From contig CAWJAB010000054.1 in the NCBI GenBank assembly GCA_963840675.1, forward strand, positions 85,196 to 149,195: a stretch of 64,000 nt of DNA, read 5' to 3'. The notes under the pieces are model-generated. The model saw nothing but the letters and a program-made list of their open reading frames with translations. It searched no databases and was not told where the DNA came from. The stretch is from an uncultured Acidobacteriaceae bacterium (GTDB lineage: Bacteria > Acidobacteriota > Terriglobia > Terriglobales > Acidobacteriaceae). Shown here in pieces: positions 4,042-41,587 of this stretch. The position numbers and the translations under genes were made by a program. Position 1 is the stretch's first letter. Every line of letters starts with the position of its first letter.

Positions 4042-4052
4042 AGGGGGGTCGA

Positions 4053-9520: not shown

Positions 9521-10360
9521 TTACTTGTCCTCGGTGGCCACGAGAAGAAGCTTAATCTGGCTGTCTTCTGAGTAGTTGACGTTGGAGGTGGGAGCGAGAT
9601 TGTCGGGCGGGTGCTCGTAGGCCATGCCAGGGGGTTGACGGCGAAGGTAGGGACCGATGAAAGCAATGCTGGTGCCGGAGAGCTCCATCCATAGATGCTC
9701 GGTGTTTGGCTTGGTGCCCAGAAAGGGCCGGGTGATCGTCAGGTTATCGAGGGTCACCGTCTCGACGCTGCTGATCGTCGCCAGACCGTCGCTCGCAGTG
9801 AAGAGCGGCCTCACCAGGCGAGACCACTCCTGCTCCGCCGTGCTGATCGGCGTGATCTTCTCATCCTTAACCACGAGCTTGCCGCCCGGCTGAAAGCCGC
9901 CGCGGGTGGGCTCGGTAATGACGTATGCGCCCAGAGGGACCGTCCCCGTGTTCTTGATGGTGAACGCCAGATTGGCGGGAACCAGCACCGCGATGTTGAC
10001 CGAAACCGGAATTGAATCACCAGCGGCCGAGATCACGCCTATGCCGGAAGTAAAGTAATACACCCGCTGTTTGCCCGAAAGAGTAACGGACGGCGAGGAA
10101 GCACCCGGAGCCAGCGTGGCATACACATAGGAGTCAACATAGCGGAGGATGGCTCCCTTGGTGGTGGGCTTGATTGGGTCTCCCTTGGTGAAGACGGTGT
10201 ACTCCGTTACTGGACCCGTGGTTTGACCCTTCGATGCGTGCCAGTCGGCAAAATACATGTCGACATAGGCGTTGCTGCCTACCTGAAGCTCTTGCGCGGG
10301 CGCCAGAGGCGAAAGCGAGGTCACCGCGAGCAGAGCGGCCGCCAGCATCTTGCCTGTCAT
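9521..10360 (-). CDS. Secreted bicupin-like protein (intact paralogue of 8195..9197)
   Basis: Signal peptide MTGKMLAAALLAVTSLSPLAPAQ. Colinear with the 8195..9197 product. The metal-binding His positions of the cupin motif are largely replaced (PNTEHLW). Confidence 0.6.
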   Translation of the reverse strand: MTGKMLAAALLAVTSLSPLAPAQELQVGSNAYVDMYFADWHASKGQTTGPVTEYTVFTKGDPIKPTTKGAILRYVDSYVYATLAPGASSPSVTLSGKQRVYYFTSGIGVISAAGDSIPVSVNIAVLVPANLAFTIKNTGTVPLGAYVITEPTRGGFQPGGKLVVKDEKITPISTAEQEWSRLVRPLFTASDGLATISSVETVTLDNLTITRPFLGTKPNTEHLWMELSGTSIAFIGPYLRRQPPGMAYEHPPDNLAPTSNVNYSEDSQIKLLLVATEDK

Positions 10361-17004: not shown

Positions 17005-18063
17005 CTAGATAACCACGATGCTGATTGGCTTGGGAACTGACGCGCGCTTGACCGGGCCGGCGAGCACGCGGCCGGCTTCATCGATCTTCATCCCCAGGAC
17101 CGCATCGTGGCTCAAGGCCAATAAACTTCTGCCGTGCGGCATTACATGCAACCTGCTTACGTTAATGCCTTCTACTCCGGGCAATGCCTCCATCCCACCG
17201 TCGGGTGCAATCTTCCACACCCGCACACCATGGCCGTGCGCGGTATACAGTGTCTCGCCCGAAGGATGCATCGCCAGCCCGGCCACCTCACTCCCAAGGG
17301 AAATGGTTCGCACGTGATCCAGTGTGCCCCCGTCATAGCTGGACAGCGTCCCATTCAATGCGTTCGCCACGTAGAGCCGGTCGCCGTCGGGATGCAGCAC
17401 GATACTACTCGGCCCGGAGCCCGCAGGGACTTCCCGGCGCCCGGTTGCAGTAAGCTGGCCGTTGCTGAGCGAAAACACACTGAGCTTGTCGCTGCCCTCA
17501 TCCGCCGTCAACACACGACCCGCTGCGTCAAAGATCACGGCGGAAGGATGCGCCGCCGACTGCAACACGTGCGGACCCGAACCTGTTTCCTTGAAGATGC
17601 CCGACACCTTTCCCAGGCGCCCGTCCTCCTGGAGTAACAGCACGTTGTACGCGCCACCACCATGGACCGCGACCACAATGCTACGACCATCCGGGGCAAC
17701 TGCCAGGTCTCGCGGCAAGATAGCCGAGAGCGACAACGGCACGCGGTTTTTGAAGTCCAGCCGGCCGGTTGCAGCGTCGATTGCATAGGAATCCACGCTG
17801 CCGCGCGGCAAATTGCCGTACTCAGAGATGCCGTTGGCCACATATAAATGGCCACCGCTGATCGCCATCGCCACGGGATGGGCGCTGGCAATCGTCTGCT
17901 CGTAGATAAAATGCTGGTCTGCGGTGATTGAGTAGACGTGGATCCCGTCCGGTGCCCCGATATAGACAAACCTGGACTGGGGCGACGCCCAGCCAAACCG
18001 GGCTACGCCCAACAATGACGCACTCCCCACCACTTGCAGAAAGCGTCTGCGGTTCATCTCCAT
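17005..18063 (-). CDS. Tat-exported 7-bladed beta-propeller lactonase (Pgl/YbhE-like)
   Basis: Twin-arginine signal MEMNRRRFLQVVGSASLLGVARFGWA. Repeated blades (HPVAMAISGGHLYVAN, PRDLAVAPDGRSIVV, PSSIVLHPDGDRLYVAN, VAGLAMHPSGETLYT). Confidence 0.65.
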   Translation of the reverse strand: MEMNRRRFLQVVGSASLLGVARFGWASPQSRFVYIGAPDGIHVYSITADQHFIYEQTIASAHPVAMAISGGHLYVANGISEYGNLPRGSVDSYAIDAATGRLDFKNRVPLSLSAILPRDLAVAPDGRSIVVAVHGGGAYNVLLLQEDGRLGKVSGIFKETGSGPHVLQSAAHPSAVIFDAAGRVLTADEGSDKLSVFSLSNGQLTATGRREVPAGSGPSSIVLHPDGDRLYVANALNGTLSSYDGGTLDHVRTISLGSEVAGLAMHPSGETLYTAHGHGVRVWKIAPDGGMEALPGVEGINVSRLHVMPHGRSLLALSHDAVLGMKIDEAGRVLAGPVKRASVPKPISIVVI

Positions 18064-19627: not shown

Positions 19628-22600
19628 TTAGAAGATAAACTTGCCGCTTATCTGGCCGACTCGAGCCGGTGCGGTGTTCGTGACCTGACCGAACTGGCCG
19701 CTGTTAGCATTGCCCACCGTTGCGTTGGTGAGGAAGTTGGCATGGTTGAAGACATTGAACATCTCGAGGCGGAAATTGAGTTGCATTCTCTCAGTGAGTT
19801 TCGTATCTTTTTCCACGCCAGCGTCGGTGTTGATCGTTCCCGGCCCGTGGAAGAGGAACTGCTTCGCGGTGCCGGTCACCCCACACATTTCGTAGCCACA
19901 GCTGAGGTTACTGGCAAAGGATGATGTATCGAAGTAAGTATGTGCCGGAGCATGCGGATTGAGCTTCTTGAATGGAGCTACCTGGTTAGGATAGTCCAGG
20001 CCGATGTTGGTCAGAGCGAAATCACCGCCGCTCGCCAGGCTCACTGGGGTGCCTGTGTTGAAGCGGCTGATTCCCGTAATCTGCCATCCCTCGCTATATC
20101 GATGGGCGCCCATGAAGCGGTAAAAAGGTATATTCCAGTTGTAACTGGCTACGAAGTTGTGCCGCATGTCGAACCCGGATTGGCCGTAGTTGCTTCCCGG
20201 AGTGCGCGGGTCGTAGATGGCAGAGTAGGTATCCAGCGACTTGGCGTAGGTATAGGAGAGCAGGTAGGTGACGTCGCGAGCGCGCCGTTCCGCCGAGATC
20301 TGCAGCGAGTTGTAGTTAGAGTTTCCCGAGTTCTGGTTATAGCTCGACTCAGCGAAGGCTACAACCGGACCGCCGGCAGAGTTCTTGTAGTTCGGGCTGA
20401 TGGTCTGGTTGTCGATCGGCCCTACGAGCGTACCGTAGACGTTCTGACCATTTTGCTGGTAGACGCCACCCTCACCACCCGGGCCGCAGCCTGCGAGCGA
20501 CTGGCAGAGCGAGGCACTGCCATAGATTATGTTCACGTCATGCTCCACGTGGTGGGCCAGGGTTCCTACGTAAGCCACGGTCAGAACAGTCGCCTTGTCG
20601 AGCTGCCGCTGCATGGAGAAGTTAAAGTGCTGAGCCCCCATGGTTTTATTCTTGTTGTAGTAGCCCGGCACGTAAAGAGGCATGAGGTTTCCGAACTGGA
20701 AGTTCGGAAAGGGCCCAGGGCCCGAGGGGAAGGTAAAGGGGAAGTGCTGTCCCTGGGTAACTCCGTTGGCCCGGGTGATGTAGGGGCTGCCGAACTCCGT
20801 CTGTTGCGGCGATGACCAGTAAAGGCCCCAGGGGGCATCCCCAAGAATGCCGAAGTTCCCGTTATCCGCGACGCCCAGGTAGTAGATACCGTAGGCCGCA
20901 CGGATGCTGGTCTTGCCGGCCGCGCCCCATATGCCGCCGGCGGGCGCATAGGCGACACCAAAACGAGGTCCAAAGTTCCTATAGCGGGTTGGCGAGATCG
21001 TGCTGGGAACGGTCGGATCTCCCGGAACAAGGTTGCCCAGTGGGGAGTTGGGGAACTTGACGGATTGCACTCCCGGAACGGGTGTGGTCAAACGGCCATA
21101 GACATCGCTCCACGGCCTGGCGATATCCCAACGAAGGCCGTAGTTAATGGTCAACTGGGGAGTCGCTTTCCAGGAGTCCTGGCCATAAAAACCACAGTAT
21201 CTAGACCGGTTATCCAGAAGCTGGATAGAGCATTGGACGAATTGGCCGGGCGCGCCGATAAAGTAATCGGAAACGTCCGCACCCGTCTCTTGCCCGCTAA
21301 AGGCGAAATATCCGTTAGGTCCGCAGGTGTTTCGAGCATTCAGCTGGTAGTAGCGGAATTCCGCACCAAAGCTGAGCGAGTGGTTGCCGACGGTCTTGCT
21401 CACGGTGTCGCCTGCGGTGTAGGTGGTATCGGGCTGAAAGAGATTCAACCAGTTGTTGCCGATGGTAAAACTATTGAAGAACAGGCTGGGCACCGACGAG
21501 GGGTATCCTGCAGGGCCGGTGTTGATGAGCCCACCGTTTGCGGGATCGGTGTTGAATCCATATTGAGAATAAGAGGAGATCGTCGAGCTCGCAGACGGTT
21601 GTGCGGTGTGAACGGCGGTGCGGAAAAACGAGATGCGCGCGGTATTCACCGTGGTGGCGCCGATCGTTTTGGTGTTGCTCCCCATGAATAGCTGGTTGCG
21701 TGATGGCACAGTGACGGGAAAGCCCGGCAGATTTTCCTGGCCAAAGTATTGCTGGTTGTAGATGGGATTCAGCGCGGTCGCATCGTCGTAGTGATAGTAG
21801 AACGCCCAATCCCCAGTCTTTTGATTGACGAAATCGATCCGCTCCGCCATGTTGGTGTCGACGAGGTTACCCTTGTGGCTTGAGTCATCGTAGTCGAAGC
21901 CGCCAGCCTGATTTGAGGCCGGAATAAGCGGCAATGTCAACTCGGAAACGGGATCGATATAGGCGGAGATATTGTGGCCGGGCACTTGATTGCCATTGCT
22001 GTCCGTGGTCATGACCGCTGTGCCGAGCTGGTTGTACAAAGTAGGCGTGCAGGCCGGAGGCTGACAAACGCCGCCCGCGCCGTTGATCGTTCCGCCGCCG
22101 CGGGATTCGAGGGTGGCGGCCCAGGCATCACCCTGGACTGGTTTATCCAGGATGGCATCGGTAAAGATACCGTTCCGTTCGTCATTACTAAGAACCTGCA
22201 CCACTCCCGTGCTTTGGCCCGCTACCTGACGGGTTTGCTGAAAGTCGGTAAAGGTGAAGAGCTTGTCTTTGAGGATCGGACCACCCACGACCCCGCCGTA
22301 CTGATGACGCTTTAACTCGGCCTTTGTGCTGTCGAAGTAGTTAATCGCGTCCATCTTCTGGTTGCGGTAGAACTCGAAGAGCGTTCCATGGAAGCTGTTG
22401 GTTCCGGACTTGGTCACGGTGTTCATCACGGAACCGGTGAACTTGCCGTACTCCGCGCTGAAGCTATTGGTGATGAGGCGAAACTCAGCGACCGAGTCAG
22501 CATCTGGAATCAAGCCGGCGCCCATATTCTTGGTTTCGCTCACATCGGCGCCGTTCACCAGGAAAGCGTTGGCAAACTCCGGCATACCGTCGGTGGAGAC

Positions 22601-23161
22601 ATTGCCCGACGAGCTGTAAAGGCCGGAGGCGGGCGAGCGATCGTTGTAGCCGCTGTTGGTATTCGCAGGCGCGACACCCGGTTGCAGTGAGAGCAGATCG
22701 AGGTAGGAACGTCCGTTGAGCGGCATGGCCAGAATCTGCGAAGAGGTGATGGTGGTGCCCATCGACGTGCTCGCGGTCTCAACCTGCAGAGTGCTGGCGT
22801 CGACGGAGACGGTCTGGCTTACGTTGCCCACTTTCAACGCGAAATCGAATTTCAGCGCGTCGTTGACGTTGAGCTCGATATTGTCAACGACTCCATTCTC
22901 GAACCCGGCGTCAGCGGCGGTCAGGCGATAGCTTCCGGGAGGCAAAGCAAGAATGCTGTAGTGACCGGACGAATCCGTCGTGGCCGTACGGGTATAGCCG
23001 GTGGAGGCTTGAATGATGGTCAAGGTCGCGTTTGGAAGCACCGCGCCGGAGCTGTCGCGAACGTAGCCGCCAATCGATCCAGTCACGTCTGCCCGCAGGT
23101 GCAGGGTGCCAAGCAGCACGATCAAACCGAGAAAAAAATAACGACAACGACGAAAGTTCAT
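19628..23161 (-). CDS. TonB-dependent outer-membrane receptor with N-terminal carboxypeptidase-regulatory-like domain
   Basis: Signal peptide, then GSIGGYVRDSSGAVLPNATLTIIQASTGYTRTATTDSSGHYSILALPPGSYRL (CarboxypepD_reg), a plug region, a long Gly/Tyr/Asn-rich beta-barrel, and a C-terminal ..GKFIF aromatic terminus. Confidence 0.85.
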   Translation of the reverse strand: MNFRRCRYFFLGLIVLLGTLHLRADVTGSIGGYVRDSSGAVLPNATLTIIQASTGYTRTATTDSSGHYSILALPPGSYRLTAADAGFENGVVDNIELNVNDALKFDFALKVGNVSQTVSVDASTLQVETASTSMGTTITSSQILAMPLNGRSYLDLLSLQPGVAPANTNSGYNDRSPASGLYSSSGNVSTDGMPEFANAFLVNGADVSETKNMGAGLIPDADSVAEFRLITNSFSAEYGKFTGSVMNTVTKSGTNSFHGTLFEFYRNQKMDAINYFDSTKAELKRHQYGGVVGGPILKDKLFTFTDFQQTRQVAGQSTGVVQVLSNDERNGIFTDAILDKPVQGDAWAATLESRGGGTINGAGGVCQPPACTPTLYNQLGTAVMTTDSNGNQVPGHNISAYIDPVSELTLPLIPASNQAGGFDYDDSSHKGNLVDTNMAERIDFVNQKTGDWAFYYHYDDATALNPIYNQQYFGQENLPGFPVTVPSRNQLFMGSNTKTIGATTVNTARISFFRTAVHTAQPSASSTISSYSQYGFNTDPANGGLINTGPAGYPSSVPSLFFNSFTIGNNWLNLFQPDTTYTAGDTVSKTVGNHSLSFGAEFRYYQLNARNTCGPNGYFAFSGQETGADVSDYFIGAPGQFVQCSIQLLDNRSRYCGFYGQDSWKATPQLTINYGLRWDIARPWSDVYGRLTTPVPGVQSVKFPNSPLGNLVPGDPTVPSTISPTRYRNFGPRFGVAYAPAGGIWGAAGKTSIRAAYGIYYLGVADNGNFGILGDAPWGLYWSSPQQTEFGSPYITRANGVTQGQHFPFTFPSGPGPFPNFQFGNLMPLYVPGYYNKNKTMGAQHFNFSMQRQLDKATVLTVAYVGTLAHHVEHDVNIIYGSASLCQSLAGCGPGGEGGVYQQNGQNVYGTLVGPIDNQTISPNYKNSAGGPVVAFAESSYNQNSGNSNYNSLQISAERRARDVTYLLSYTYAKSLDTYSAIYDPRTPGSNYGQSGFDMRHNFVASYNWNIPFYRFMGAHRYSEGWQITGISRFNTGTPVSLASGGDFALTNIGLDYPNQVAPFKKLNPHAPAHTYFDTSSFASNLSCGYEMCGVTGTAKQFLFHGPGTINTDAGVEKDTKLTERMQLNFRLEMFNVFNHANFLTNATVGNANSGQFGQVTNTAPARVGQISGKFIF

Positions 23162-23375: not shown

Positions 23376-25250
23376 ATGCCGGACGATGCCAGCAAGGAAT
23401 CCTTTGCCCTGGGAATGAAGCAAGACATATCCCGCCGCGATTTCATGAATGCCACGCTGCTCGCTTCCGGCGGCGCGTTGCTCGGCGGACTTACACCGCA
23501 CCAGTTACTGGCCCAGATGGGCAAGGATAACTGGACGGGCTACGGCGGCATCGGCGATTACTCTGAATCGAATGGCAATACCTTCGAGGTGATGTCGGCC
23601 GGTCATCAGATTCGGGATCATGTCTTCGCCGATCCACCGCACGAGGTGGAGGAGACGGGCGAGGTGTTGGATTGCGTGATTGCCGGCGGCGGCCTCAGCG
23701 GCCTGGCAGCCGCGCTTTACCTGCAACAACACGCTCCACAGGCGAAGTGCCTGGTGTTGGAAAACCATCCCATCTTCGGCGGCGAGGCAAAGCGGAACGA
23801 GTTTATGGTGGACGGTCACCGGCTGATGGCGCCGCAGGGCTCCGACCATTTCGATACCCCGCAGCCGGGCAGCCCACTGGCCGCCTTCTATGAATCGATC
23901 GGCGTGGACGCCCGCAAGTTCGAGTATCAGTCGTGGCAAAGCTCGTCGCCGGAGATCCCCGTGGGCCGGAGCTTCGAGCACATTCAGTCCCCCTACGGCA
24001 TCTATTTCGGCGCTAACTCCGGCCAGCCCGGTAAGTGGGTGGTGAATCCCTGGGCTAACAAGCTAGAGGACGCGCCTATGCCGGCAGCGATGCGGGCCGA
24101 GATCCTGAAGTATCGCCGACTAGGCGCGGCGTCCGCGGGCGAAGAGAACCCCCACCAACTGGATGCCATCACCATGGAAGAGTTCATGATGCAGAAGTTT
24201 GGGCTGAGCCAGGAGACGATTCGCAAGTTTCTCATGCCTGGGCCGGCCGATGGCTTCGGCATTGGCCCGGATGTGCTCTCCGCCTACGCCTTCGGCTTTG
24301 GCGGCGACCCCATGAATTACGGGGAGGAAGCTGCGCTGCAATCCTTTCCCGGAGGCAACGGCGGTTTCGCGCGGCACATGGTAAAGACGCTGCTTCCTGC
24401 GTCCATCCCGGGGCCCCGCACGCTTGAGGCGGTGTGCCGCGGCCGGGTGAATTTCACCACCCTCGACCAGCCCGGCGCGCGCACCCGCATTCGCCTGGGC
24501 TCAACCGTGGTGCGGGTGGAACACGAGGGTCCTGCTGCGCAAAGCGAGTTTGTCCGCATCACTTATACCCGCAACGGCAAAGTCTACCGCCTGAAAGCGC
24601 GGGCGGCCGTCATGGCGGGAGGCAGCTGGACCACAAAACATGTGGTGACTGACCTACCTTCGGAACAGCGCGAAGCCTACGCGCAGTTCTTTCGTTCGCC
24701 CTGCATGCTGGTGAATGTTGCTTTGCGGAACTGGCGGTTCCTCTACAAGCGCGGTATCTCCGGAGCGTTCTGGTACGGCGGCCTGGGCATCTATGGCTCG
24801 GTCCGCAAGTCTCCTACCTTCTCCACTAATGACAAAACCATCGGACCGGATTCACCGGTGGTAATGACCATCAAGGTGCTGTTCTGCCGCCCCGGACTGC
24901 CTATGCAGGAGCAGCAGAACGCCGGCCGCGCGGAGCTGCTCTCGACCTCCTTCCGTGACTACGAGCGACGAGTGCGGGAGCAGCTTACTGAGATGTTCGC
25001 GTCTTCGGGATTTGACGCCAGGCGGGATATCGCCGGCATCGTTCTCAATCGCTGGGGGCACGCGTATTGCAGCCCGCAGCCAGGCTTCTTCTTTGGCAAG
25101 GATGGGCAGCCGGCGCCGCGCGAGATTCTGCGACGAGCACCCTTCGGGCGGATTGCTTTCGCCAATACCGATCTTTCGGGAGATCCCGGGCACCACACGG
25201 CGGTGGCAGAGGGCCAGCGCGCCGCCAGCCAGCTGCTTGATCGCATCTAG
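23376..25250 (+). CDS. Tat-exported NAD(P)/FAD-binding oxidoreductase (amine-oxidase / spermidine-dehydrogenase-like)
   Basis: Twin-arginine signal DISRRDFMNATLLASGGALLGG. Dinucleotide fold DCVIAGGGLSGLAAALYL. Size and architecture resemble SpdH-type flavoproteins (weak). Confidence 0.55.
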   Translation: MPDDASKESFALGMKQDISRRDFMNATLLASGGALLGGLTPHQLLAQMGKDNWTGYGGIGDYSESNGNTFEVMSAGHQIRDHVFADPPHEVEETGEVLDCVIAGGGLSGLAAALYLQQHAPQAKCLVLENHPIFGGEAKRNEFMVDGHRLMAPQGSDHFDTPQPGSPLAAFYESIGVDARKFEYQSWQSSSPEIPVGRSFEHIQSPYGIYFGANSGQPGKWVVNPWANKLEDAPMPAAMRAEILKYRRLGAASAGEENPHQLDAITMEEFMMQKFGLSQETIRKFLMPGPADGFGIGPDVLSAYAFGFGGDPMNYGEEAALQSFPGGNGGFARHMVKTLLPASIPGPRTLEAVCRGRVNFTTLDQPGARTRIRLGSTVVRVEHEGPAAQSEFVRITYTRNGKVYRLKARAAVMAGGSWTTKHVVTDLPSEQREAYAQFFRSPCMLVNVALRNWRFLYKRGISGAFWYGGLGIYGSVRKSPTFSTNDKTIGPDSPVVMTIKVLFCRPGLPMQEQQNAGRAELLSTSFRDYERRVREQLTEMFASSGFDARRDIAGIVLNRWGHAYCSPQPGFFFGKDGQPAPREILRRAPFGRIAFANTDLSGDPGHHTAVAEGQRAASQLLDRI

Positions 25251-28559: not shown

Positions 28560-30736
28560 CTAAGGCAGCGCGAAGGCGACGTATAGACCGCCCGAGGGCT
28601 TTCTGCTGGATTGTCCTCCGCCGGCGGCGATCACTACATATTGCTTCCCGTTCACCATGTAGGTCGAAGGCGTGGCCAGACCGGAGAACGGCAATTGCGT
28701 TTCCCATAGCAGCTTGCCGGTGCTCTTGTCATAAGCGTGGAACTTCTCGTCAAAAACACTGGCGCCGATAAAGAGTAGTCCTCCATCCGTGACCACCGGG
28801 CCGCCGTAATTATCCGATCCGGTGTCAGCCATGCCTTTGGCCACCAGCTCCGGATACTCGCCGAAAGGAATCTTCCACAAATACTTTCCGGTATTCAAGT
28901 CGATCGCGCTGAGTGTGCCCCAGGGCGGAGCGGTGGCAGGATAACCCTCCGGATCGGTAAAGCGGCGAAAGCCAATGGTCTTGTATGGCATGTCGTCATT
29001 GGCATGCCCGCCGGCACCCTCCGCTGCTACGGGCTCCGCAGCGGCCTTGGCTTTCGACCCGTGGCCTTGCCTGCTCTTGTTGCGGCGCCTTGGTCAGGTA
29101 GCGCACCACGGCTTGCACCTCAGCATCGCTTAGGTTGTTGAACGGGCGGCATGCGGCCTCTTCCCTGCCGGATGATGCCTGCGATCTCCTGCTCGGTCAG
29201 AATCCCCTCAATGCCCCACAAAGCGGGGATGGCGGGCGGAGAGCCGGCCCGGTTCATGCCATGGCATCCGCTGCATTGGTTCTGGTAAACACGCTCGCCC
29301 AAACTTCCGGGCGGCGGTGGAACGGTCAAGCCAACCAGCCACGCAGTGTCATTGGCATTGACATACAAGACTCCGGTCGACGGGTCGACCGCGGTGCCAC
29401 CCCACTCTCCGCCGCCGGCAAAACCCGGCAAGTCGATGGTGAGCTTGTCCACGCTGGGCGGAATGAACTGGCCGCCGCCGATCATGGCCTTGAATTGCTT
29501 CACTGCCCACGCATGCGCTTCGGGCGTACGGTTGGTTAGGGTATCTTCCGTGGTGCTCTGCTGGGTGTATGGCGCGGGCGCGGTAGGCAGCGGCTGGGTG
29601 GGCGAAGTAACTTCACCCGGAACGGTGCTGGCAGGATAAGCAGATTCCTGGATGGGGAAGAGCGGCTTGCCGTTCGCGCGGTCGAAGACGTAAAGGAAAC
29701 CGGACTTGGTGGTCTGTGCGATCGCATCCACCCGCTGTCCGTCGCGCGTGACTGTCAGCAGTGCGGGAGGCGCAGGAAAATCGCGGTCCCACAGGTCGTG
29801 GTGCACGCCCTGGAAATGCCAGATGCGCTTGCCGGTCTCCGCATCGAGGGCAATCAGCGAGTCGGCAAACAAATCGTTGCCCACACGGTCCCCGCCATAG
29901 AAGTCGAAGACTGCGGAGCCGGTCGGCACATAGACGATGCCACGGCTGGTATCGATCGTCATCCCGGCCCAGTTATTGGCGGCTCCCGCATTCTTCCAGG
30001 CGTCTTTGGGCCAGGTGTCATAGCCGAACTCTCCCGGCCGGGGAATGGTGTGGAAAGTCCAGCGCAAGGCGCCGGTGTGTACATCGAAGGCGCGAATGTC
30101 TCCCGGAGGCGCCGGATGGGTTTCAGGATTGGCCCCACCGACGATGATCAGATCCTTGTAGATGCTGCCCGGCGAGGTGAGCTCGACGGACTGTGCCTGG
30201 TAGGGCTCGCGCAGACCCTTACGTAAGTCGATGCGCCCGTTCTCTCCGAAGCCGGGAATCGGCTTGCCCGTGGCCGCATCGAGCGCGTAGAGATAGTTGC
30301 GAGCACCGGCAAAGATGCGGCTCTTATGGCCATCGGTCCAGTAGGAAACACCGCGTGACAGCACCCGCCCAGGCAAGTCTGCCTGGAACCGCCACATCAG
30401 CTTGCCCGTGGCGGCATCGAGCGCGATTACGCTGCGGCCCGGGGTGCAGGTGTACAAAACCTTGCCGACAATTATGGGATTCGCTTCCAGGCCGCCTTTT
30501 TCTCCGGTGTCATACATCCATGCCACTTTGAGATTCTTTACGTTGTCGCGATTGATCTGCGACAACGTGGAGTAGTGAGTCCCGTCGTGGCCCCCGTAAG
30601 CCGGCCAATCCTGCGTTGCCTCTTCGTTCGCTGGCCCTGTGCCGTGTGCCGTGAATGACCCGAAAACTAACAAAACTAGTGCCGCTGCCCTGAACCTTCC
30701 CATTCGCCCCCGCCCCATTCGCCCCCTCAACCCCAA
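28560..30736 (-). pseudogene. PQQ-dependent dehydrogenase with a class-I cytochrome c domain inserted before the last propeller blades; two frame changes
   Basis: ORF 29120..30736 has a signal peptide, QDWPAYGGHDGTHYS, propeller blades, then CSGCHGMNRAG..RGRMPP. The cytochrome c C-terminus ([20 protein letters not shown]) is in another frame; the change is at the G3 run 29144-29146. A second change lies within 29041-29095. The last blades are ORF 28560..28991 ([26 protein letters not shown]). Confidence 0.8.
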
Positions 30737-31873
30737 TTACGCTTTCATTTGAGCATTGGCTCGATTGAGCAACGCCTTCATGTACGCGAAGCCATAAGCC
30801 TGCTCGGCGTTGTGACCGCCTTCGAGCGAAGGCGTGTGGTCCAGGATGACGATGCCGTCGAAGTTGACCTCGTGCAGGGCCTCCATGATTTTGTACATGT
30901 CATAGTAGCCGTTATCCATGAACGTCTCGACGAAGTGGGGCAGCGGCGCGCTTACATTGCGAAAGTGGATCTTCCAGATTTTCTCCGGACCAAACGCACG
31001 AATCATCTCCGCCGGATCTTTGTGCATGAGCGCGGGGCCGCCTTCGTTCCAGCAACCGCAACAGAGGCATATGCCGACGTTGGGGCTGTTGGCGATCTCC
31101 ATCGCACGCTTGTAGCCCTCATAGTTGGCAAAGATGCAGCGCGGAACGCCTGCCAGCTCGGGTTCCGGAGGATCATCCGGATGGATGCCGATGCGCACGT
31201 TGACCTCTTCCGCGACCGGCGCAACCTGCTTGATGAAATAGGTGTAGTTCTCCCAAATTTCATCGGTTGAAAATTTCCGGCCGTGAGAGAGCGGCTCGTA
31301 AAACAACTTTCCATCCCAGCTGCCCACTTTGTTGGGGCTTGCCATGTCGAATTCGCGGGCGGAGGATCCGCGGATAACGGCTCTGCCGCTGCTCCAGATA
31401 CCGTTGCCCATGTGCGCGTAAGTGGTGTAGTAAATCCCTGCCTGCCCAAGATTACGAAGGTACTGCTTGTACTCCTCAATCTTCTGGTCGCGTCCCGGCA
31501 GGTTCAGGGTTACCTCGGGCATGTTATGCACGCTGGTGTTGCCAATGTTCCATACCGTGATGCCGGCGTCGGCATAGCGCTTCTTGATTTGCAGAAAGCC
31601 TTCCGCGGTTCTCAGGTCGGGCGTGGAACCCACGCTGACGTACTCGGCGCCAATCTGCTTGAGGAACAGGAGCTCATCATCGGTGGGCTTGGCCGAACTC
31701 TGCGCGCAGAGTTTGATGCCCGGCGCGTTCTTGTGTACAGCCGCCGAGGCCGTACGGCCCGATGACAGGAACGCACGCGCGCCCAGGGCGCCGCCCACAG
31801 CGAGCTTGAAGAATTCTCTCCGGTCAGGGTCTTGATTGCCCACGCTGCATCTCCTCCAAGTTGCAGTGACCAT
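30737..31873 (-). CDS. Tat-exported mannonate-dehydratase (UxuA)-like TIM-barrel protein
   Basis: Twin-arginine motif DRREFFKLAVGGALGARAFL. GIHPDDPP, VGICLCCGC and ILDHTP are UxuA-like. The likely start is GTG 31843 (GGAGGA 9 nt upstream) rather than ATG 31873. Confidence 0.6.
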   Translation of the reverse strand: MVTATWRRCSVGNQDPDRREFFKLAVGGALGARAFLSSGRTASAAVHKNAPGIKLCAQSSAKPTDDELLFLKQIGAEYVSVGSTPDLRTAEGFLQIKKRYADAGITVWNIGNTSVHNMPEVTLNLPGRDQKIEEYKQYLRNLGQAGIYYTTYAHMGNGIWSSGRAVIRGSSAREFDMASPNKVGSWDGKLFYEPLSHGRKFSTDEIWENYTYFIKQVAPVAEEVNVRIGIHPDDPPEPELAGVPRCIFANYEGYKRAMEIANSPNVGICLCCGCWNEGGPALMHKDPAEMIRAFGPEKIWKIHFRNVSAPLPHFVETFMDNGYYDMYKIMEALHEVNFDGIVILDHTPSLEGGHNAEQAYGFAYMKALLNRANAQMKA

Positions 31874-31920
31874 TGTATGCCTGGAGTAAAGTGGATGCGT
31901 GCCGGTCGGGAGGAGAGAGG

Positions 31921-33075
31921 ATGACTACTGATTTTTCAAGAAGAACACTGATCAAGGGGATCTGTTCGAGTGCTGCGTTGTCGGCTGCCGCGGTGTTGCC
32001 TGCTGCCGCCGCAGACGGGGAATACAAGGGCCCACACGGCCCGGGGATGCCGCAGGAAGGGCCCAACACGCCCAAGCTTTGCGCCCCGCTCGGCGGCCCG
32101 ATTAACGATGAACAGATGCGTCGCGTCAAGCAGTTGGGAGTCAACAATGTGCTGATGGGCGGCCCGCAGATGCCCTGGCAAGAGGCCGATCTGCAGGCCA
32201 CGGTGGACAAGCTCAAGACAGGCGGCCTGACCGTGGGCAACATGATGATCTCCGGATTTCCGAACTGCATCTACGGGCGCCCCGGCGCGGCCCGCGATAA
32301 GGAGATTGAAGACTTCAAGAGCTCGGTTCGCGCCGCAGGCAAGGTGGGCCTGCCGGTGGTCGAGTACAACTGGTATGCCCACCGGGCCATCGAGGGCTAC
32401 TACCTGGAAGAGGGACGCGGCGGAGCGGGTCTGACCGGGTTCAACATCAACAAGGTGGAGAACCTGCCTACTGTTCCTGAAGAGGGAGTGCATTCCGATG
32501 AGGAACTGTGGAGGAACATCACTTATTTTTTGCAGGCGGTTATTCCCACCTGCGAGCAGTCGAATGTGCGTTTGGCGCTGCACCCCAATGACCCCCCGAT
32601 CGCGATAACCCGCGGATCGGGACAGATCATGGCTTCTCTTGATGGCTGGAAGAAGCTGATCACGGTTGTGAACAGCCCGGCCAACGGCATCACTTATGAA
32701 TGCGGCGTGTCACGGGAAATGGAGGTCGATCCGGTCGAGGTTTGTAAATACTTTGGCACGCGCGACCGCATCAACCACGTGCACTACCGTAATCCAGTTG
32801 TGCGGGTCCCGCATAACGACTACACCGAGACCTTTATCGACCAGGGTGAAAACAACATGCTGGCCGTGATGCGCGAGCTGATCAAGGTGAAATACACGCG
32901 GCTGATTTATCCCGAGCACGAGCGCGCATTGGATTACGATCGCGCGGTCGGCATCCACAATGGATATCCGGGCGGCGGCGGATATACGGGGATGGTCTTT
33001 GATATCGCCTATGCGCGGGCGATGTTCCAGGCCGCCATCATGCTGGAACAAGGCACCGAGTGGAAGGAGTTCTGA
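31921..33075 (+). CDS. Tat-exported mannonate-dehydratase (UxuA)-like TIM-barrel protein, divergent paralogue
   Basis: ATG 31921 gives MTTDFSRRTLIKGICSSAALSAAAVLPAAAA (Tat signal). LALHPNDPP, INHVHYRN and IYPEHERAL. Confidence 0.6.
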   Translation: MTTDFSRRTLIKGICSSAALSAAAVLPAAAADGEYKGPHGPGMPQEGPNTPKLCAPLGGPINDEQMRRVKQLGVNNVLMGGPQMPWQEADLQATVDKLKTGGLTVGNMMISGFPNCIYGRPGAARDKEIEDFKSSVRAAGKVGLPVVEYNWYAHRAIEGYYLEEGRGGAGLTGFNINKVENLPTVPEEGVHSDEELWRNITYFLQAVIPTCEQSNVRLALHPNDPPIAITRGSGQIMASLDGWKKLITVVNSPANGITYECGVSREMEVDPVEVCKYFGTRDRINHVHYRNPVVRVPHNDYTETFIDQGENNMLAVMRELIKVKYTRLIYPEHERALDYDRAVGIHNGYPGGGGYTGMVFDIAYARAMFQAAIMLEQGTEWKEF

Positions 33076-33078
33076 TTT

Positions 33079-34044
33079 CTAGGGTTCGGGCGCGGGTGCA
33101 GGAGGCGTATGCGGGTGCGGCTTGATCGCGTCCGCCAGCAGCGCGTCGAATTCAGAACGCGGCATCTTCAGCTTCTCAGGATGGGCATCGATGTATTTGC
33201 CAAGCCCTTCAAACTTCGCCGGCGTCCAACCACCTTCGAACTCGGCCCCGTTCTTGCCTTCACGGTTCAATTCGAAGTTGTAGTCATCCATCAGGTTGGT
33301 GAACTCCGCCTTGCTGATTGCGGATTCGGCGAGAATCGCAGGAATGAAGATGACTCCGTCCGTCTTGGCTAAGACCAGGTCTCCGGGCAACACAGTCGCG
33401 CGCCCGATGCGAATAGGGGAATTGATTGCCGTCAAGGTCATCTGCGCCCACGCGGAGGGATCGTAGCCTTTATAGAATCCGTTGAAGTTGGGGATCTCGC
33501 GGTTCTCCTCCTGGTCGCGTATGCCCCCGTAGAACACAAACCCGGTATGGGTGTGCGCGGCAATGCCGTTGCCCAGGTTGGAGCCAATCAACGTACCTTC
33601 AATGATCTTGCCAAAGCCGTCGGCAACGTACACATCGTTGAGCTGCAGTTCGTTGATTGGCCAACTATTGTTTCCGCTAACGCGGCCTTCGGCCTTTCCC
33701 TCCGCGGCAATGGCCCTGGCCATATCCGCCCGCACCGGCATGTATTGCGCGGTGAGCGCCCGGCCGGCAAACGGCTTTTCGATATGCAATGCCTCCCAAT
33801 TCCCTTCAAACTGGTTGGCATAGCCATGCGCTCGCAGGTAATCCCACACGTCTTCAATCGAGACATCCAAAGCACGCTTGAGCAGATCGTCGGGAACCTT
33901 CGGCCGTCCGTCAGGGAAGCGTTCGCCTTTCCAGTCTGACGTGTAGAACATCATCTGTTCCTTCGTCATCTTTACCTGAGAAAAGGCAGCCGAAGCTCCC
34001 AACAAAGTCCAGGTAATCACCACCGCTACAATCAATTTTTTCAT
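33079..34044 (-). CDS. Sec-exported RraA-family protein (HMG/CHA aldolase / oxaloacetate decarboxylase-like)
   Basis: ATG 34044 (AGGAGA upstream) gives MKKLIVAVVITWTLLGASAAFSQ. RraA-like core GSNLGNGIAAHTHTGFVFYGGIRD..PGDLVLAKTDGVIFIP. Confidence 0.6.
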   Translation of the reverse strand: MKKLIVAVVITWTLLGASAAFSQVKMTKEQMMFYTSDWKGERFPDGRPKVPDDLLKRALDVSIEDVWDYLRAHGYANQFEGNWEALHIEKPFAGRALTAQYMPVRADMARAIAAEGKAEGRVSGNNSWPINELQLNDVYVADGFGKIIEGTLIGSNLGNGIAAHTHTGFVFYGGIRDQEENREIPNFNGFYKGYDPSAWAQMTLTAINSPIRIGRATVLPGDLVLAKTDGVIFIPAILAESAISKAEFTNLMDDYNFELNREGKNGAEFEGGWTPAKFEGLGKYIDAHPEKLKMPRSEFDALLADAIKPHPHTPPAPAPEP

Positions 34045-34102
34045 GGGAGTCTCCTGCCTCGAACACCATATCATTGCGGGGAAATTCGCGCCAAACGCAA
34101 GA

Positions 34103-35077
34103 CTAGTACGGAGGCGGCCGGTTGCTGAACTTGCGGCCAATCGCCGCCGTCTCCGGGCTGGCGGGCCCCACCATCACGCCTTCTTTGATCAGGGAAATTA
34201 CGTCTTTGGAGGTGAACGCGTTCAGGAAAAATATATGGTTCGCTTTGCAGGCGGCAAAGACCCTGCTGCGCGCGGCAACCATCCTGGGATCCTGCATCGC
34301 CGCCTCACCGCGTGCAACCACTTCCAACGACATCGCCATATCTCCAGGCCCCCACTCGGCCATGCCGATGCCGGGAACTTTCAGGTTCTGGTCGACATTG
34401 GCAAGCGCGTATTTGTCTTCTTCCTTGACGCCGAGCAGCAGTTCGCCGTTCGGATTCAACGGCCAGGGATCTGCCTTTTCCTCGTATTCCTGCTCCGAGA
34501 CTCCCCAGATCTGCGCGGCAGTAGGAACCCCGTGCACACCCCGGCGCCCTTCAGGGAGCCCATCTTCGCCCACGCCCTGGTGATGAATGGGAAAGCGCAC
34601 CGCTTCTACAAAGGCGCGGATCGCGCCCGGGTCGTCGGCGTGGGTAAGCATAATGCCATGCACGCCCGTCGCCAGCACCTGGCTGAACATCCAGGCATTG
34701 GCATGCACGGCGGCGGCATCCAGGCCATTCACCGGCACATTGACAATCACGGCCGGCGTACGATGGCCGCTGCGGTCAGGACCGCCGGCCACCAGCCCGC
34801 GCATGTACTCCTGCAGCCCCTTTACGTCGTAGGGGGCGTGCTCCATGTCGTAGCTTATGTAGTCCGCGTAGGTTTGCGCGTCCTTGACTCCCTGCTCATA
34901 GGTGCCGGCGGTTCCCGAATGCGACCCGGCGTAGTAGATGGGCTGGCCTTTCGCCAGCAACTCGATGGCCTGGTTGATGCGCTTGGGCTTCGCCGGTTGC
35001 GCCGCGATGGTAATAGTGACCGCGGCCAGCAGAACAGATGCCGATACAAGGAACTTTGCCTTTCCAGTCTTCTTCAC
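34103..35077 (-). CDS. Sec-exported HpcH/HpaI-family class II aldolase (2-keto-3-deoxy-acid aldolase-like)
   Basis: No in-frame ATG lies before the conserved core. GTG 35077 (AGGGGGA upstream) gives VKKTGKAKFLVSASVLLAAVTITIAAQPA. Core motifs YISYDMEHAPYD, GIMLTHADD and GMAEWGPGDMAMSL. Confidence 0.7.
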   Translation of the reverse strand: MKKTGKAKFLVSASVLLAAVTITIAAQPAKPKRINQAIELLAKGQPIYYAGSHSGTAGTYEQGVKDAQTYADYISYDMEHAPYDVKGLQEYMRGLVAGGPDRSGHRTPAVIVNVPVNGLDAAAVHANAWMFSQVLATGVHGIMLTHADDPGAIRAFVEAVRFPIHHQGVGEDGLPEGRRGVHGVPTAAQIWGVSEQEYEEKADPWPLNPNGELLLGVKEEDKYALANVDQNLKVPGIGMAEWGPGDMAMSLEVVARGEAAMQDPRMVAARSRVFAACKANHIFFLNAFTSKDVISLIKEGVMVGPASPETAAIGRKFSNRPPPY

Positions 35078-35204
35078 AAGCCATCCCCCTAACCATTCAG
35101 GCCACGCGAATACTATTGCAGCCGGGCGATCAACACAAGAACTCTTCGGCAGGTGTACCCTTCTTCGAGAGCATTCATCGCCATCATGGCTAAGAAGAGG
35201 GTCC

Positions 35205-36540
35205 GTGAAACGTCGTGAACTATTGAAGTCCATCGGAGGTGTCAGCCTGTGCGGTCTGGCTTCGCCTCTCTTGCGGTCGCAGGAGCAGGTTGCCCGCGCC
35301 ACCCGGGGCATGGCCACGCCTCGCATCAAGGATATTAGCGTGATCGAGTGTGAGCCCGCCGGCACGCGGCTTACCGTAGTCAAAATCACCACCGACCAGG
35401 ATGGCCTCTACGGCTATGGCTGCGCCACCTTCACCCAGCGCGCCGACCTGGTCAAACCGGCAGTCGAGAAATATCTGAAACCGTTCCTGCTTAATAAGAC
35501 CACGGACCGGATCGAAGATATCTGGCAATCGTGTTACGACAGCTCGTACTGGAAGAACGGGCCGGTGCTGAACAACGCCATCAGCGGCGTCGATCAGGCG
35601 CTGTGGGATATCAAGGGCCGGCAGGCGGGCATGCCCGTCTATCAGCTTGCCGGCGGCAAATGCCGGGAAGCCGTCGATGCCTATACCCATGCCGATGGCC
35701 CTGACTTTCAGGCCGTGGTTGAGAGCGCGAAGGGTTTTATCGCCCAGGGATTCCGCAACGTTCGGGTGCAGGTTGGCATTCCCGGCATGGCGGGCTATGG
35801 CTCGAGACGAGGCGGCAGCACCACGCTGAAGGCGCTGCACGATAAACCGCTCTTCGAGCCGGCCTACGATTTTCGCCGCTCCCTGAAGCTGCTTGAAGTC
35901 TGCCGCCAGGAACTAGGCGACGAGGTCGAGCTGCTGCACGATATGCACGAGCGGCTCACACCCAACCAGGCGGTGCAGTTCTGCAAAGAGGCGGAAAAGT
36001 TTCACATGTTCTTTCTCGAAGATCCGCTGTCGCCGGAAGACTTGGCCTACTTCCAGCAGATTCGCCAGAACTGCGCCACGCCCATTGCGATGGGTGAGCT
36101 CTTCAACAACCCACACGAATGGCAGCCTTTAATCGAGGGGCGGCTTATCGATTACATCCGGGTGCATGTTTCGCAGGCAGGCGGCTTCACGCCCGTCACG
36201 CAAGATCGCGATCCTGGCGGAGCAGTACGGGGTCAAGACCGCATGGCACGGTCCAGGCGATGTCTCACCCGTAGGCCATATGGCCAACGTGACCCTGGAT
36301 ATTGTCAGCTATAACTTCGGCATTCAGGAGTACTCGCCCTTCAACGAACAGACCCAGGAGATTTTTCACGGCTGCCCGGTAATGAAGGACGGATACATGT
36401 GGGTGAACGAAACACCGGGCTGGGGAATCGAGATCGACGAGAAAGCCGCGGCCAAGGCGCCGTTTAATCCTGGACAAAACAACCTGAACGGCGGATGGGG
36501 AGAAGTGCGGAAGCGCGACGGCACTGTGATCAAGCAGTAA
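35205..36540 (+). pseudogene. Tat-exported enolase-superfamily D-mannonate/galactonate dehydratase (ManD-like); one frame change
   Basis: GTG 35205 gives VKRRELLKSIGGVSLCGLASPLL (Tat signal). ITTDQDGLYGYGCATF, ISGVDQALWDIKGR, LLHDMHERL, FFLEDP and IDYIRVHVSQAGGFTP are in ORF 34938..36314. RKIAILAEQYGVKTAWHGPGDVSPVG..NFGIQE is in ORF 36166..36540. The join is at 36191-36197. Confidence 0.8.
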
Positions 36541-41393: not shown

Positions 41394-41587
41394 CAGTCCC
41401 GCAGGGACGACCTGAAAGTAGTCCAGGACGTCAGTCCTGGGGACACTTCCCGGAATTTGACTAGTCCCGTAGGGACGACTGAGACGGGTGGAATGATTCA
41501 ACCGTCCCTGCGGGACTTCTCCGGACTGGTTACCAAAACCCAGGACTGACCGTCTTGGGCTACTTTCAAGTCGTCCCTGCGGGACTG
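41394..41587. repeat. Family-B nested palindromic element (GTCCCGCAGGGAC units)
   Basis: The outer arms 41394-41440 and 41539-41587 are ~47-nt imperfect inverted copies (AGTCCCGCAGGGACGACCTGAAAGTAGTCCAGGACGTCAGTCCTGGG). The inner inverted pair is 41462-41480 / 41500-41517. Every unit contains the self-complementary core GTCCC-N3-GGGAC. Confidence 0.8.

Follow-up and report, generated by a model that had tools for sequence, protein, structure and literature searches.

The non-phosphorylative Entner-Doudoroff (npED), Weimberg and Dahms pathways have a reaction logic, enolase-superfamily aldonate dehydratases, lactonases and a cleavage into pyruvate and an aldehyde that are apparently shared by the gene cluster examined here. 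This cluster of six genes encodes a pyrroloquinoline quinone (PQQ) dehydrogenase with its own haem c domain, two UxuA-like dehydratases (UxuA_A and UxuA_B), a ManD-subgroup dehydratase of the enolase superfamily, and an HpcH/HpaI-like and an RraA-like protein, and it lies near the middle of a 64,000-nucleotide stretch of DNA from an uncultured Acidobacteriaceae bacterium (assembly GCA_963840675.1, contig CAWJAB010000054.1, positions 85,196 to 149,195), which as a whole is called the window. The npED and Dahms routes have been described with NAD(P)-dependent dehydrogenases and class I aldolases of the DHDPS/NAL family, and a periplasmic location is not mentioned for them (PMC9795676). The window cluster is unlike them in its PQQ/haem c oxidant, in its candidate metal aldolases of HpcH-like and RraA-like type and in the export signals predicted throughout.

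Oxidation of sugars by PQQ in the periplasm, with electrons fed to the respiratory chain, is likewise carried out by the membrane-bound PQQ glucose dehydrogenase of Pseudomonas and Gluconobacter. To our knowledge the periplasmic part ends there at gluconate or ketogluconate, which is then imported and phosphorylated, and we know of no periplasmic dehydratase or aldolase in these organisms. The PQQ enzyme of the window differs in being apparently soluble, with a signal peptide instead of a membrane anchor and with a haem c domain inserted. Another cofactor-sparing oxidative module of the periplasm is the 3-keto-glycoside pathway of gut Bacteroidota, made up of the TIM-barrel lyase AL1/BT1, the DUF1080 lyase-hydratase AL2/BT2 and the Tat-exported Gfo/Idh/MocA oxidoreductase AL3/BT3; its leaders are of Sec, lipoprotein and twin-arginine translocation (Tat) type (10.1101/2024.03.25.586180). 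DUF1080 proteins and barrels of the xylose-isomerase clan are common to that pathway and to the fuller acidobacterial locus described below, whereas the window cluster has no Gfo/Idh/MocA oxidoreductase, its barrels are of UxuA type, and its ManD-, HpcH- and RraA-like proteins are without counterpart in that pathway. Enzymes that fold and load manganese or another cofactor in the cytoplasm are exported in the folded state by Tat, as are cyanobacterial MncA and Zymomonas glucose-fructose oxidoreductase; these are single enzymes, whereas the window cluster is predicted to be a set of consecutive pathway enzymes with export signals.

The window cluster is a trimmed copy of a gene cluster that is conserved in Terriglobia (Acidobacteriaceae and, in part, Bryobacteraceae), plus the rarer UxuA_A gene. 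Families were assigned by a Pfam profile search of the window open reading frames (ORFs), with the NCBIfam equivalog cut-offs as a curated check, and all six families proposed at these positions by an initial annotation, made from the sequence alone, were recovered by Pfam (Table 1). Each of the six genes bears a leader, while the flanking glmS and FNR-like genes bear none. Judged from the leaders and their conservation, export of the cluster proteins is highly probable, and dehydration of sugar acids in the periplasm appears probable, with less assurance. That the exported products act on sugars and sugar acids in the periplasm is the reading we favour, with some hesitation, and a full periplasmic route to pyruvate can be put forward only tentatively.

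Table 1. Features of the window, their predicted leaders, and the presence of the gene families among 46 full-length loci carrying the PQQ gene
Feature	ORF or span	Gene	Strand	Profile evidence	Predicted leader in the window	Consensus leader of orthologues (route)	Loci (of 46)
PQQ dehydrogenase with c-type cytochrome domain	28560-30736	28560..30703	-	Pfam PQQ 518 + 128 bits, Cytochrome_CBB3, Cytochrom_C	MGRFRAAALVLLVFGSFTAHG, about 30641-30703		
UxuA-like A (UxuA_A)	30737-31873		-	Pfam UxuA 158.7 bits	...DPDRREFFKLAVGGALGARAFLSSGRTASAA, about 31739-31873, likely start GTG 31843 or ATG 31873	PDRREF[FV]KLAVGG... (Tat)	6
UxuA-like B (UxuA_B)	31873-33075	31921..33075	+	Pfam UxuA 135.9 bits	MTTDFSRRTLIKGICSSAALSAAAVLPAAAA, 31921-32013	MSSDFSRRxLMKGICSTAALSAA... 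(Tat)	44
RraA-like	33079-34140	33079..34044	-	Pfam RraA-like 61.2 bits	MKKLIVAVVITWTLLGASAAFS, 33979-34044	MKKxIVAAV...AF[AS]Q/VK (Sec)	
HpcH/HpaI-like	34103-35392	34103..35077	-	Pfam HpcH_HpaI 29.8 bits, cut-off 25	VKKTGKAKFLVSASVLLAAVTITIAA, 35000-35077, GTG start	[VM]KRxGKQ + hydrophobic stretch + IVA/QTAKPK (Sec)	39
ManD-subgroup MR_MLE enolase-superfamily protein	34938-36314 and 36166-36540	35205..36540	+	Pfam MR_MLE_N, MR_MLE_C	VKRRELLKSIGGVSLCGLASPLLRSQEQVARATRG, 35205-35306, GTG start, 34 residues	M[KN]RRxLLKS + hydrophobic stretch + QEQVARATRG (Tat)	35
7-bladed beta-propeller lactonase, about 10 kb from the cluster		17005..18063	-	Pfam Lactonase 102.9 bits	MEMNRRRFLQVVGSASLLGVA (Tat)		
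TonB-type outer-membrane receptor (CarboxypepD_reg + OMP_b-brl_4)		19628..23161	-	Pfam 550 bits			
DUF1080 (relatives)							32
MR_MLE2 (relatives)							28
DHDPS-like (relatives)							27
HpcH2 (relatives)							20
UxuA_C (relatives)							18

Leaders were called with home-made rules, a twin arginine with an uncharged hydrophobic stretch being taken as Tat and a basic n-region with a hydrophobic core as Sec. The orthologue set consisted of 77 loci from a genome scan anchored on the RraA-like protein, mostly from Acidobacteriaceae with some Bryobacteraceae, and the in-frame upstream sequence of each orthologue was read back to the preceding stop. In every family, a start codon is placed just before the conserved leader and the sequence upstream of this start is unalignable. 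The Sec rule was passed by 114/116 distinct RraA orthologue N-termini and by all 41 locus orthologues of the HpcH-like protein (HpcH1), and the Tat rule by 46/48 distinct N-termini of UxuA_B, where the leader is conserved as MSSDFSRRxLMKG..., and by 38/39 ManD orthologues; leaders were also called in HpcH2 (21/21), UxuA_C (15/15) and DUF1080 (32/34). The conserved DHDPS-like gene of the related loci served as negative control and, since it scored 0/27, the signal rules are not promiscuous. The N-terminal strings quoted in the initial annotation are all present in the sequence, NRRRFLQVVGS being that of the lactonase, and the export signals it described are conserved, with leaders in dozens of orthologues and unalignable sequence ahead of them. 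Its assertion that every member carries a leader holds for six of six genes in the window and goes too far in that the DHDPS-like gene of relatives is never signalled.

The division between the two export routes also came out as had been described, with Tat leaders on the UxuA-like and ManD-like proteins and the lactonase and a Sec leader on the haem c protein. Attachment of haem c takes place in the periplasm and haem c proteins must use Sec, which accounts for the Sec leader of the dehydrogenase. The Tat leaders on the UxuA-like and ManD-like proteins, being on Mn/Mg enzymes, would fit folding and metal binding before export.

Among the genes of the set, only that of the ManD-like protein has a canonical internal ATG (MATPRIKD), use of which would drop the leader. 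The codon-position entropy over 39 distinct orthologues is, however, 0.44/0.16/0.95 in the leader as against 1.6/1.6/1.6 upstream, and among 120 database homologues the RR leader is present in 119 while the internal Met is kept in 73 and absent in 47. As the variation falls on third positions, as in coding sequence, and the internal Met is dispensable, the comparison shows the leader to be translated. The 150 nearest representatives of 50%-identity clusters include 105 that are N-terminally complete, at least 30 of them with a Tat-type leader and 45 with none, so that exported ManD-type proteins seem to form a large unrecognised sub-population; our literature search yielded no description of Tat-bearing ManD proteins as such a group. 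When a profile of diverse Tat-bearing ManD-like proteins was searched, the named sources among the best 120 matches were Acidobacteriota only. Between the hydrophobic part of the leader and the canonical start, all ManD-like orthologues have a QEQVARATRG segment (35271-35306 in the window) that is more conserved than the leader itself and may be part of the mature protein or an unusual cleavage region (ARA/T). Another contig (L084, 10001-14446) has a more distant ManD-like gene with a Tat leader, whose product shares 42% identity with that of the window; a PIG-L deacetylase and a further MR_MLE gene lie close by, which hints at exported enolase-family dehydratases in other genomic contexts.

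For UxuA_A, the RREF motif is found in 9/9 locus orthologues and the strict form RR[DEQ]F.K in 91/120 database homologues, most of the listed exceptions being near variants such as RREFGK or RREFFR, and there is no start codon that yields a complete barrel minus the leader. The HpcH gene had been said to lack any alternative start codon that would remove the hydrophobic segment; this proved incorrect, as a TTG exists at codon 40, although that codon is not conserved and the residues ahead of it are invariant protein sequence. The Sec leader is present in 50/51 motif-matched database homologues of HpcH1 and, by eye, in nearly all other listed homologues bar a few N-truncated entries.

Two of the six genes are interrupted in the window. 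The PQQ gene is split between 29120-30736(-), which holds the 518-bit part and the cytochrome domains, and 28560-28991(-), which holds the remaining propeller, and compared with L003, the closest relative at about 93% DNA identity, whose ORF of 719 amino acids is unbroken, it has one extra base at each of 29143 and 29055; intact orthologues measure 719-732 amino acids. The frame of the ManD-like gene is broken near 36190-36198, again by a single-base insertion relative to L003, and its orthologues are intact at 443-454 amino acids. Outside the cluster, a major facilitator superfamily (MFS) transporter gene at 4613-5913 falls into two frames that overlap, one matching profile positions 2-194 and the other 154-347, and the essential glmS gives split matches in several sister genomes of the same series of long-read metagenome-assembled genomes (MAGs). 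As these genes are hit as well, the three frameshifts of the cluster are probably assembly indels. Pseudogene decay specific to the cluster was considered and rejected on the same evidence together with the intact PQQ gene of L003. The GGDEF domain of an HD-GYP/GAF signalling protein at 54166-56298(-) is cut short where the ORF ends, with 41 of 161 profile positions covered, and a further frameshift is the probable cause.

Both UxuA-like proteins exceed the Pfam gathering score for UxuA (PF03786) of 23.7 bits, the match lying mainly in the C-terminal half, whereas the NCBIfam UxuA models (TIGR00695; equivalog/subfamily) give 96.6/129 and 73.4/110.6 bits against cut-offs of 199.55/191. The sequence matches of UxuA_A in the PDB are solely UxuA structures (1tz9, 3ban and 4eac), with about 25% identity to characterised UxuA, and its motifs IHPDDPP, C-x-G, H-x-RNV, DH and YG line up with 1tz9 and 3ban. 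The kept H and Y positions are presumably those of the catalytic His311 and Tyr325 of S. suis UxuA. In a Foldseek search with the AlphaFold2 model of UxuA_A (predicted local distance difference test (pLDDT) 70.5, residues 1-48 disordered), 3ban, 4eac and 1tz9 came first at 1e-18 to 1e-17 with a template modelling (TM) score of about 0.7, while other xylose-isomerase-like barrels followed at about 1e-12 and the 3-keto-glucal hydratase 8ro4 at 7e-10. Although Pfam also matches the UxuA-like proteins to the xylose-isomerase-like TIM barrel family, both sequence and fold thus place them with UxuA over other barrels, and the assignment to unrelated TIM-barrel families, named in the initial annotation as the outcome that would overturn it, was not what we found. 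The modelled structure and the conserved metal ligands argue for a UxuA-type fold in these proteins. An exact database look-up of the window UxuA_A protein gave no record.

The ManD-like protein, once its frame was repaired, reached 438.9 bits to the ManD-family structure 3t6c, with about 60% identity over the printed alignment, and also matched 4ihc and 3tw9. Its MR_MLE N- and C-terminal domains, the Asp/Glu/Glu metal ligands and HDxH place it in the ManD subgroup; the HDxH, LEDP and GEL motifs are kept, and LLHDMHE, FFLEDP and AMGELF are conserved with respect to 3t6c and 4ihc. The intact orthologue of locus L036 remains below the NCBIfam equivalog for D-mannonate dehydratase ManD (393 vs 550 bits) and below the D-galactonate dehydratase model (384 vs 430 bits). 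In its two domains and its metal and acid/base motifs the window protein is like the ManD subgroup (3t6c, 4ihc, 3tw9, 2qjj), whereas the structurally characterised members start at the position of the internal Met, without a leader.

The HpcH assignment is weak by sequence and supported by fold. The HpcH_HpaI (PF03328) score rises from that of the window protein to 38.8 bits in the L036 orthologue and sequence matches in the PDB are weak; with an AlphaFold2 model of a database homologue (pLDDT 75), the best Foldseek matches were all class II aldolases of the HpcH/HpaI, GarL and YfaU kinds, at 1e-12 to 1e-10. Little or no variation is seen at DMEH, E220 and D246, which line up with the VQVES and GPADL motifs, and an HR(T)P that is likewise invariant or near-invariant occurs six residues upstream of the position aligned to HpaI Arg70. 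We take the DxEH, Glu, Asp and Arg70 residues of HpaI to have catalytic or metal-binding roles. The NCBIfam scores were 31.5 vs 368.8 bits for HpaI and 30.8 vs 441 bits for RhmA, neither cut-off being reached. The RraA-like protein (PF03737, cut-off 24.5 bits) matches the PDB entries 5x15 (1.7e-11) and 3noj, an HMG/CHA aldolase (5e-5), and its GGIRD lines up with GAVRD of 1j3l, the Arg-Asp (R-D) motif that presumably serves in pyruvate or metal binding in this family. It is a candidate metal-dependent 4-hydroxy-2-oxoacid aldolase or oxaloacetate decarboxylase, with NCBIfam scores of 42.1 vs 304.5 and 40 vs 179 bits for LigK/PcmE and 23.9 vs 136 bits for RraA. The two genes form a same-strand tandem adjoining the dehydratases, with the HpcH-like gene 58 nt upstream of the RraA-like gene.

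The description of the first enzyme as a PQQ dehydrogenase with its own cytochrome c domain was borne out by the Pfam matches of Table 1 and by a CSGCH motif; a PQQ propeller and a c-type CxxCH in one polypeptide make it a quinohaemoprotein. The propeller is 8-bladed, and the cytochrome c domain (CSGCH) is inserted between Pfam PQQ profile positions 446 and 481 and followed by a low-complexity linker, for example in L036; this arrangement is seen in the window (28560-30736), in L036 (12376-14574) and in L001 (11234-13429). In type II quinohaemoprotein alcohol dehydrogenases the haem domain is appended C-terminally, whereas here it is inserted in the propeller. The best NCBIfam model of the propeller is the glucose/quinate/shikimate membrane-bound PQQ dehydrogenase (TIGR03074), below cut-off, and the closest solved structures are alcohol dehydrogenases, the best at 158 bits, so no close structure was found.

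In many Acidobacteriaceae MAGs, a fuller locus runs in the order UxuA_C (Tat), ManD (Tat), second MR_MLE (Tat), DHDPS-like (no signal), HpcH1 (Sec), HpcH2 (Tat), RraA1 (Sec), DUF1080/3-keto-disaccharide-hydrolase (Sec), RraA2 (Sec), UxuA_B (Tat), PQQ-cytochrome c (Sec), FNR-like and glmS. The Tat leader of HpcH2 in this fuller locus is MKIKRRDLLTAGVSIG; the protein (L036, 7062-8156, and 20 other loci) is about 45% identical to the window HpcH and has a Gly/Arg-rich linker besides its Tat leader (MKIKRRDLLTAGVSIGVGMAATGVMAQ). With HpcH2 on Tat and HpcH1 on Sec, two export routes would serve one family in one locus. The DHDPS/NAL-family gene (L036, 4528-5472, and 26 other loci), a weak Pfam match of 26.5 bits, is absent from the window, and so is DUF1080; the signal-less DHDPS-like product may represent a cytoplasmic end of the pathway. 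RraA-like, UxuA_B, IclR, MR_MLE, UxuA_A and PQQ-cytochrome c genes are grouped in Paracidobacterium acidisoli, where the leaders are of the types described above, and a Bryobacteraceae contig groups MR_MLE, HpcH-like, DUF1080 and AP_endonuc_2 genes. A lactonase with a Tat leader (300 bits), an exported cupin, a GntR/FCD regulator and a TonB-type receptor are further members of some loci, and 16 related loci have a receptor homologous to that of the window within the cluster. Sec leaders are also found on cupin-domain proteins of the window (9521-10360) and of related loci (L017, 857-1795); these proteins are possibly sugar or uronate isomerase-type enzymes of the periplasm.

While the genes for the dehydrogenase, the dehydratases and the candidate aldolases are adjacent, the lactonase of the window is 10 kb off, and some relatives (L017) have another lactonase, also with a Tat leader, within the locus itself. 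Of the two lactonases invoked by the initial annotation, that at 17005-18063 is upheld by its score and Tat leader, whereas the ORF at 1-914 has its N-terminus cut by the window edge and a weak match of 32 bits. A BBE/FAD oxidase at 18070-19539 was considered as a periplasmic source of lactone and dropped, as no leader is visible.

In the pathway that we propose, the substrate would enter through a TonB-type receptor, for which that of the window is a possible route, and be trimmed by periplasmic glycosidases. The Sec-exported PQQ/haem c dehydrogenase would oxidise the aldose, with its own haem c relaying the electrons to the respiratory chain, the Tat-exported lactonase would open the lactone, and the Tat-exported UxuA-like and ManD-like dehydratases, which would need a divalent metal only, would convert the aldonate into a 2-keto-3-deoxy acid. 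The exported HpcH-like and RraA-like metal enzymes may then cleave or decarboxylate the 2-keto acid to give pyruvate and an aldehyde; in relatives, the signal-less DHDPS-like enzyme probably cleaves a share of the keto-deoxy acid after its import. Such an exported set, having no need for ATP or freely exchanging NAD(P), would suit periplasmic chemistry. Catalysis in the enolase superfamily begins with removal of the proton beside a carboxylate, 2-oxo acids are the substrates of class II and RraA-type aldolases, and since this chemistry requires carboxylates or 2-oxo acids, the substrates should be sugar acids and their 2-keto-3-deoxy products. The Tat lactonase, the GntR/FCD regulator (a type found in sugar-acid regulons) and the TonB-type receptor of relatives fit a theme in which an aldose is turned into a lactone and then an aldonate. 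Predictions from gene content are nevertheless all that is offered here for compartment, substrates, order of steps and end products. That the whole ATP/NAD-independent branch of soil Acidobacteriota, from aldose through lactone, aldonate and 2-keto-3-deoxy acid to pyruvate plus aldehyde, is periplasmic, with electrons leaving by haem c and only C2-C3 products imported, seems doubtful in that full form, and the DHDPS-like gene suggests that the last step may be partly cytoplasmic. The initial annotation had spoken of a complete pathway exported in every member; its families and leaders stand, while 'complete' and 'every member' are too strong in view of this unsignalled gene.

Several observations weigh against periplasmic action of the cluster on sugars and sugar acids. 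The NCBIfam equivalog cut-off is reached by none of the six cluster proteins, and their substrates and reactions are assigned by family membership. The substrate of the PQQ enzyme is not fixed by its NCBIfam and structure matches, both of which are distant, and the HpcH-like and RraA-like proteins appear too distant from characterised aldolases for a reaction to be assigned; the position aligned to HpaI Arg70 is Asn in HpcH1 (IVNVP) in the sole alignment that covers it. As regards export, the leader rules are home-made, and that of UxuA_A, to judge from its sequence the weakest of the set, has RREFFK but with an Arg within the hydrophobic core and fails the strict rule in 5/9 copies, the window copy included. 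The two frameshifted genes among the six count here as well. Taken with the IclR and GntR/FCD regulators, the signal-less DHDPS-like gene hints at some entry of keto-deoxy acids or aldonates into the cytoplasm, and the DUF1080 proteins of the fuller locus indicate that part of it may handle keto-sugars. In one Bryobacteraceae genome (L080/L081, 8102-10954), the stop of a gene for GTP-dependent phosphoenolpyruvate carboxykinase (PEPCK) is followed 4 nt later by the start of an HpcH-like gene. This pairing of a cytoplasmic gluconeogenic enzyme with a signal-bearing homologue of oxo-acid lyases is odd in itself.

Part of this evidence can be read as a pathway split between compartments, with oxidation, opening of the lactone and dehydration to 2-keto-3-deoxy acids in the periplasm and with import of the keto-deoxy acid for cleavage by a cytoplasmic DHDPS/NAL enzyme, the HpcH-like and RraA-like proteins doing something else, for which decarboxylation or tautomerisation of oxo-acids, or action on other 4-hydroxy-2-oxo acids, is suggested. 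We consider this unlikely, though deserving of serious attention. The locus of P. acidisoli includes an IclR regulator, the type to which KdgR belongs, and any characterised aldolase is a remote match for the HpcH-like and RraA-like proteins; the DHDPS-like gene, in 27/46 full loci and never with a leader, represents a family that includes 2-keto-3-deoxygluconate (KDG) and 2-keto-3-deoxy-pentonate aldolases (PMC9795676). Yet the window has no such gene and keeps the HpcH-RraA tandem beside the dehydratases, the metal ligands of the one protein and the R-D motif of the other are conserved, and most loci carry either family in duplicate and in close linkage with the dehydratases. A different partition of roles, which appears rather improbable to us, would follow the keto-sugar (3-keto-glycoside-type) scheme of Bacteroidota, in which the PQQ enzyme would oxidise a ring carbon of glycosides or sugars, the UxuA-like and DUF1080 proteins would act on the keto-sugars as metal-dependent lyases or hydratases, and dehydration of acid sugars would not be at the core. 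The DUF1080 gene in 32/46 full loci, its place beside HpcH-like, MR_MLE and AP_endonuc_2 genes in Bryobacteraceae, the periplasmic precedent itself and the additional match of the UxuA-like proteins to xylose-isomerase-like barrels all speak for it. It has to contend, however, with a window that lacks DUF1080, with the absence of a Gfo/Idh/MocA oxidoreductase from the cluster, with the far better fold match to UxuA (1e-18) than to other barrels (1e-12) or 8ro4 (7e-10), and with ManD-subgroup, HpcH-like and RraA-like enzymes that need carboxylate or 2-oxo-acid substrates.

Even if the substrates are acids, they need not derive from sugars, and periplasmic breakdown of other hydroxy- or oxo-acids, such as ring-fission products from lignin or humic matter, would agree with the best NCBIfam names, LigK/PcmE for the RraA-like and HpaI for the HpcH-like protein, although both are far under cut-off. 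LigK-type RraA proteins and HpaI-type aldolases belong to aromatic meta-cleavage, PQQ quinohaemoproteins oxidise alcohols, and the closest solved PQQ structures are alcohol dehydrogenases. Against the three to five UxuA-type or ManD-type dehydratases per locus, the lactonase, glycoside hydrolases and GntR/FCD regulator nearby and the lack of ring-cleavage dioxygenase or hydratase genes, we find this reading very unlikely. Hardly credible is the view that the leaders are artefacts or vestiges, with translation from downstream starts giving ordinary cytoplasmic enzymes, or that the window copy is a decaying pseudogene cluster. The internal ATG of the ManD-like gene, the TTG at codon 40 of the HpcH gene, three frameshifts in 8 kb and the atypical UxuA_A leader could be cited in its favour, but the leaders recur in dozens of species with coding-type substitution and unalignable sequence upstream, many ManD homologues have lost the internal Met, UxuA_A has no leaderless start for a complete barrel, and the frameshifts also affect unrelated genes and the glmS of sister MAGs while the PQQ gene of L003 is intact.

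To one side of the cluster are glmS and the gene of an FNR-like reductase, and to the other side genes for a SpoIIE-type sensor phosphatase and a LytTR response regulator. The wider window contains further carbohydrate genes, namely the TonB-type receptor, glycoside hydrolases of families GH2, GH5 and GH18, the lactonase, a second PQQ dehydrogenase and a small cytochrome c. No leader can be recognised in the called ORF of the second PQQ dehydrogenase (2179-4596, 640 bits), where an indel has possibly removed the N-terminus, and the small protein after it, with a cytochrome c motif and a helix-hairpin-helix, could accept electrons. Near the TonB-type receptor, a flavin amine-oxidase-like protein (23376-25250) with the Tat leader DISRRDFMNATLLASGGALLGG is predicted to be another exported cofactor oxidoreductase. 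Comparison of the two divergent intergenic regions (31844-31920 and 35078-35204) for a shared operator revealed no common k-mer of 8 or more, and Rfam and tRNA scans found nothing within the cluster. An Acido-Lenti-1 small RNA at 41395-41441(-) (Rfam RF01687, 39.1 bits vs a gathering score of 37) fits the acidobacterial origin of the DNA.

Our literature search returned no report of exported UxuA, ManD, HpcH or RraA enzymes or of a periplasmic branch of dehydratases and aldolases, and nothing on a Tat-dependent or periplasmic mannonate dehydratase, on exported enolase-superfamily enzymes or on PQQ together with dehydratases in Acidobacteria; a paper on DUF1080 in Thermogutta had no bearing on this question. 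Public pipelines name these genes 'mannonate dehydratase', 'enolase C-terminal domain-like protein' and 'aldolase/citrate lyase family protein'. The genes as such are not new; what would be new is the compartment and the combination in which known chemistry and known families appear.

In soil, Terriglobia rank with the most abundant bacteria, and little is understood of their processing of plant and microbial sugars. If the proposed pathway is true, it would extend the periplasmic direct oxidation of Pseudomonas and acetic acid bacteria by several steps, and one set of metal-only enzymes would funnel many sugars into a few small acids without the need for sugar-specific transporters or kinases. 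It would also define large uncharacterised sub-families of ManD, UxuA, HpcH and RraA that bear signals, and the cluster would offer a concrete case of Tat delivering metal-loaded catabolic enzymes as a set. Part of central carbohydrate metabolism would then have been relocated to another compartment, by very abundant soil bacteria.

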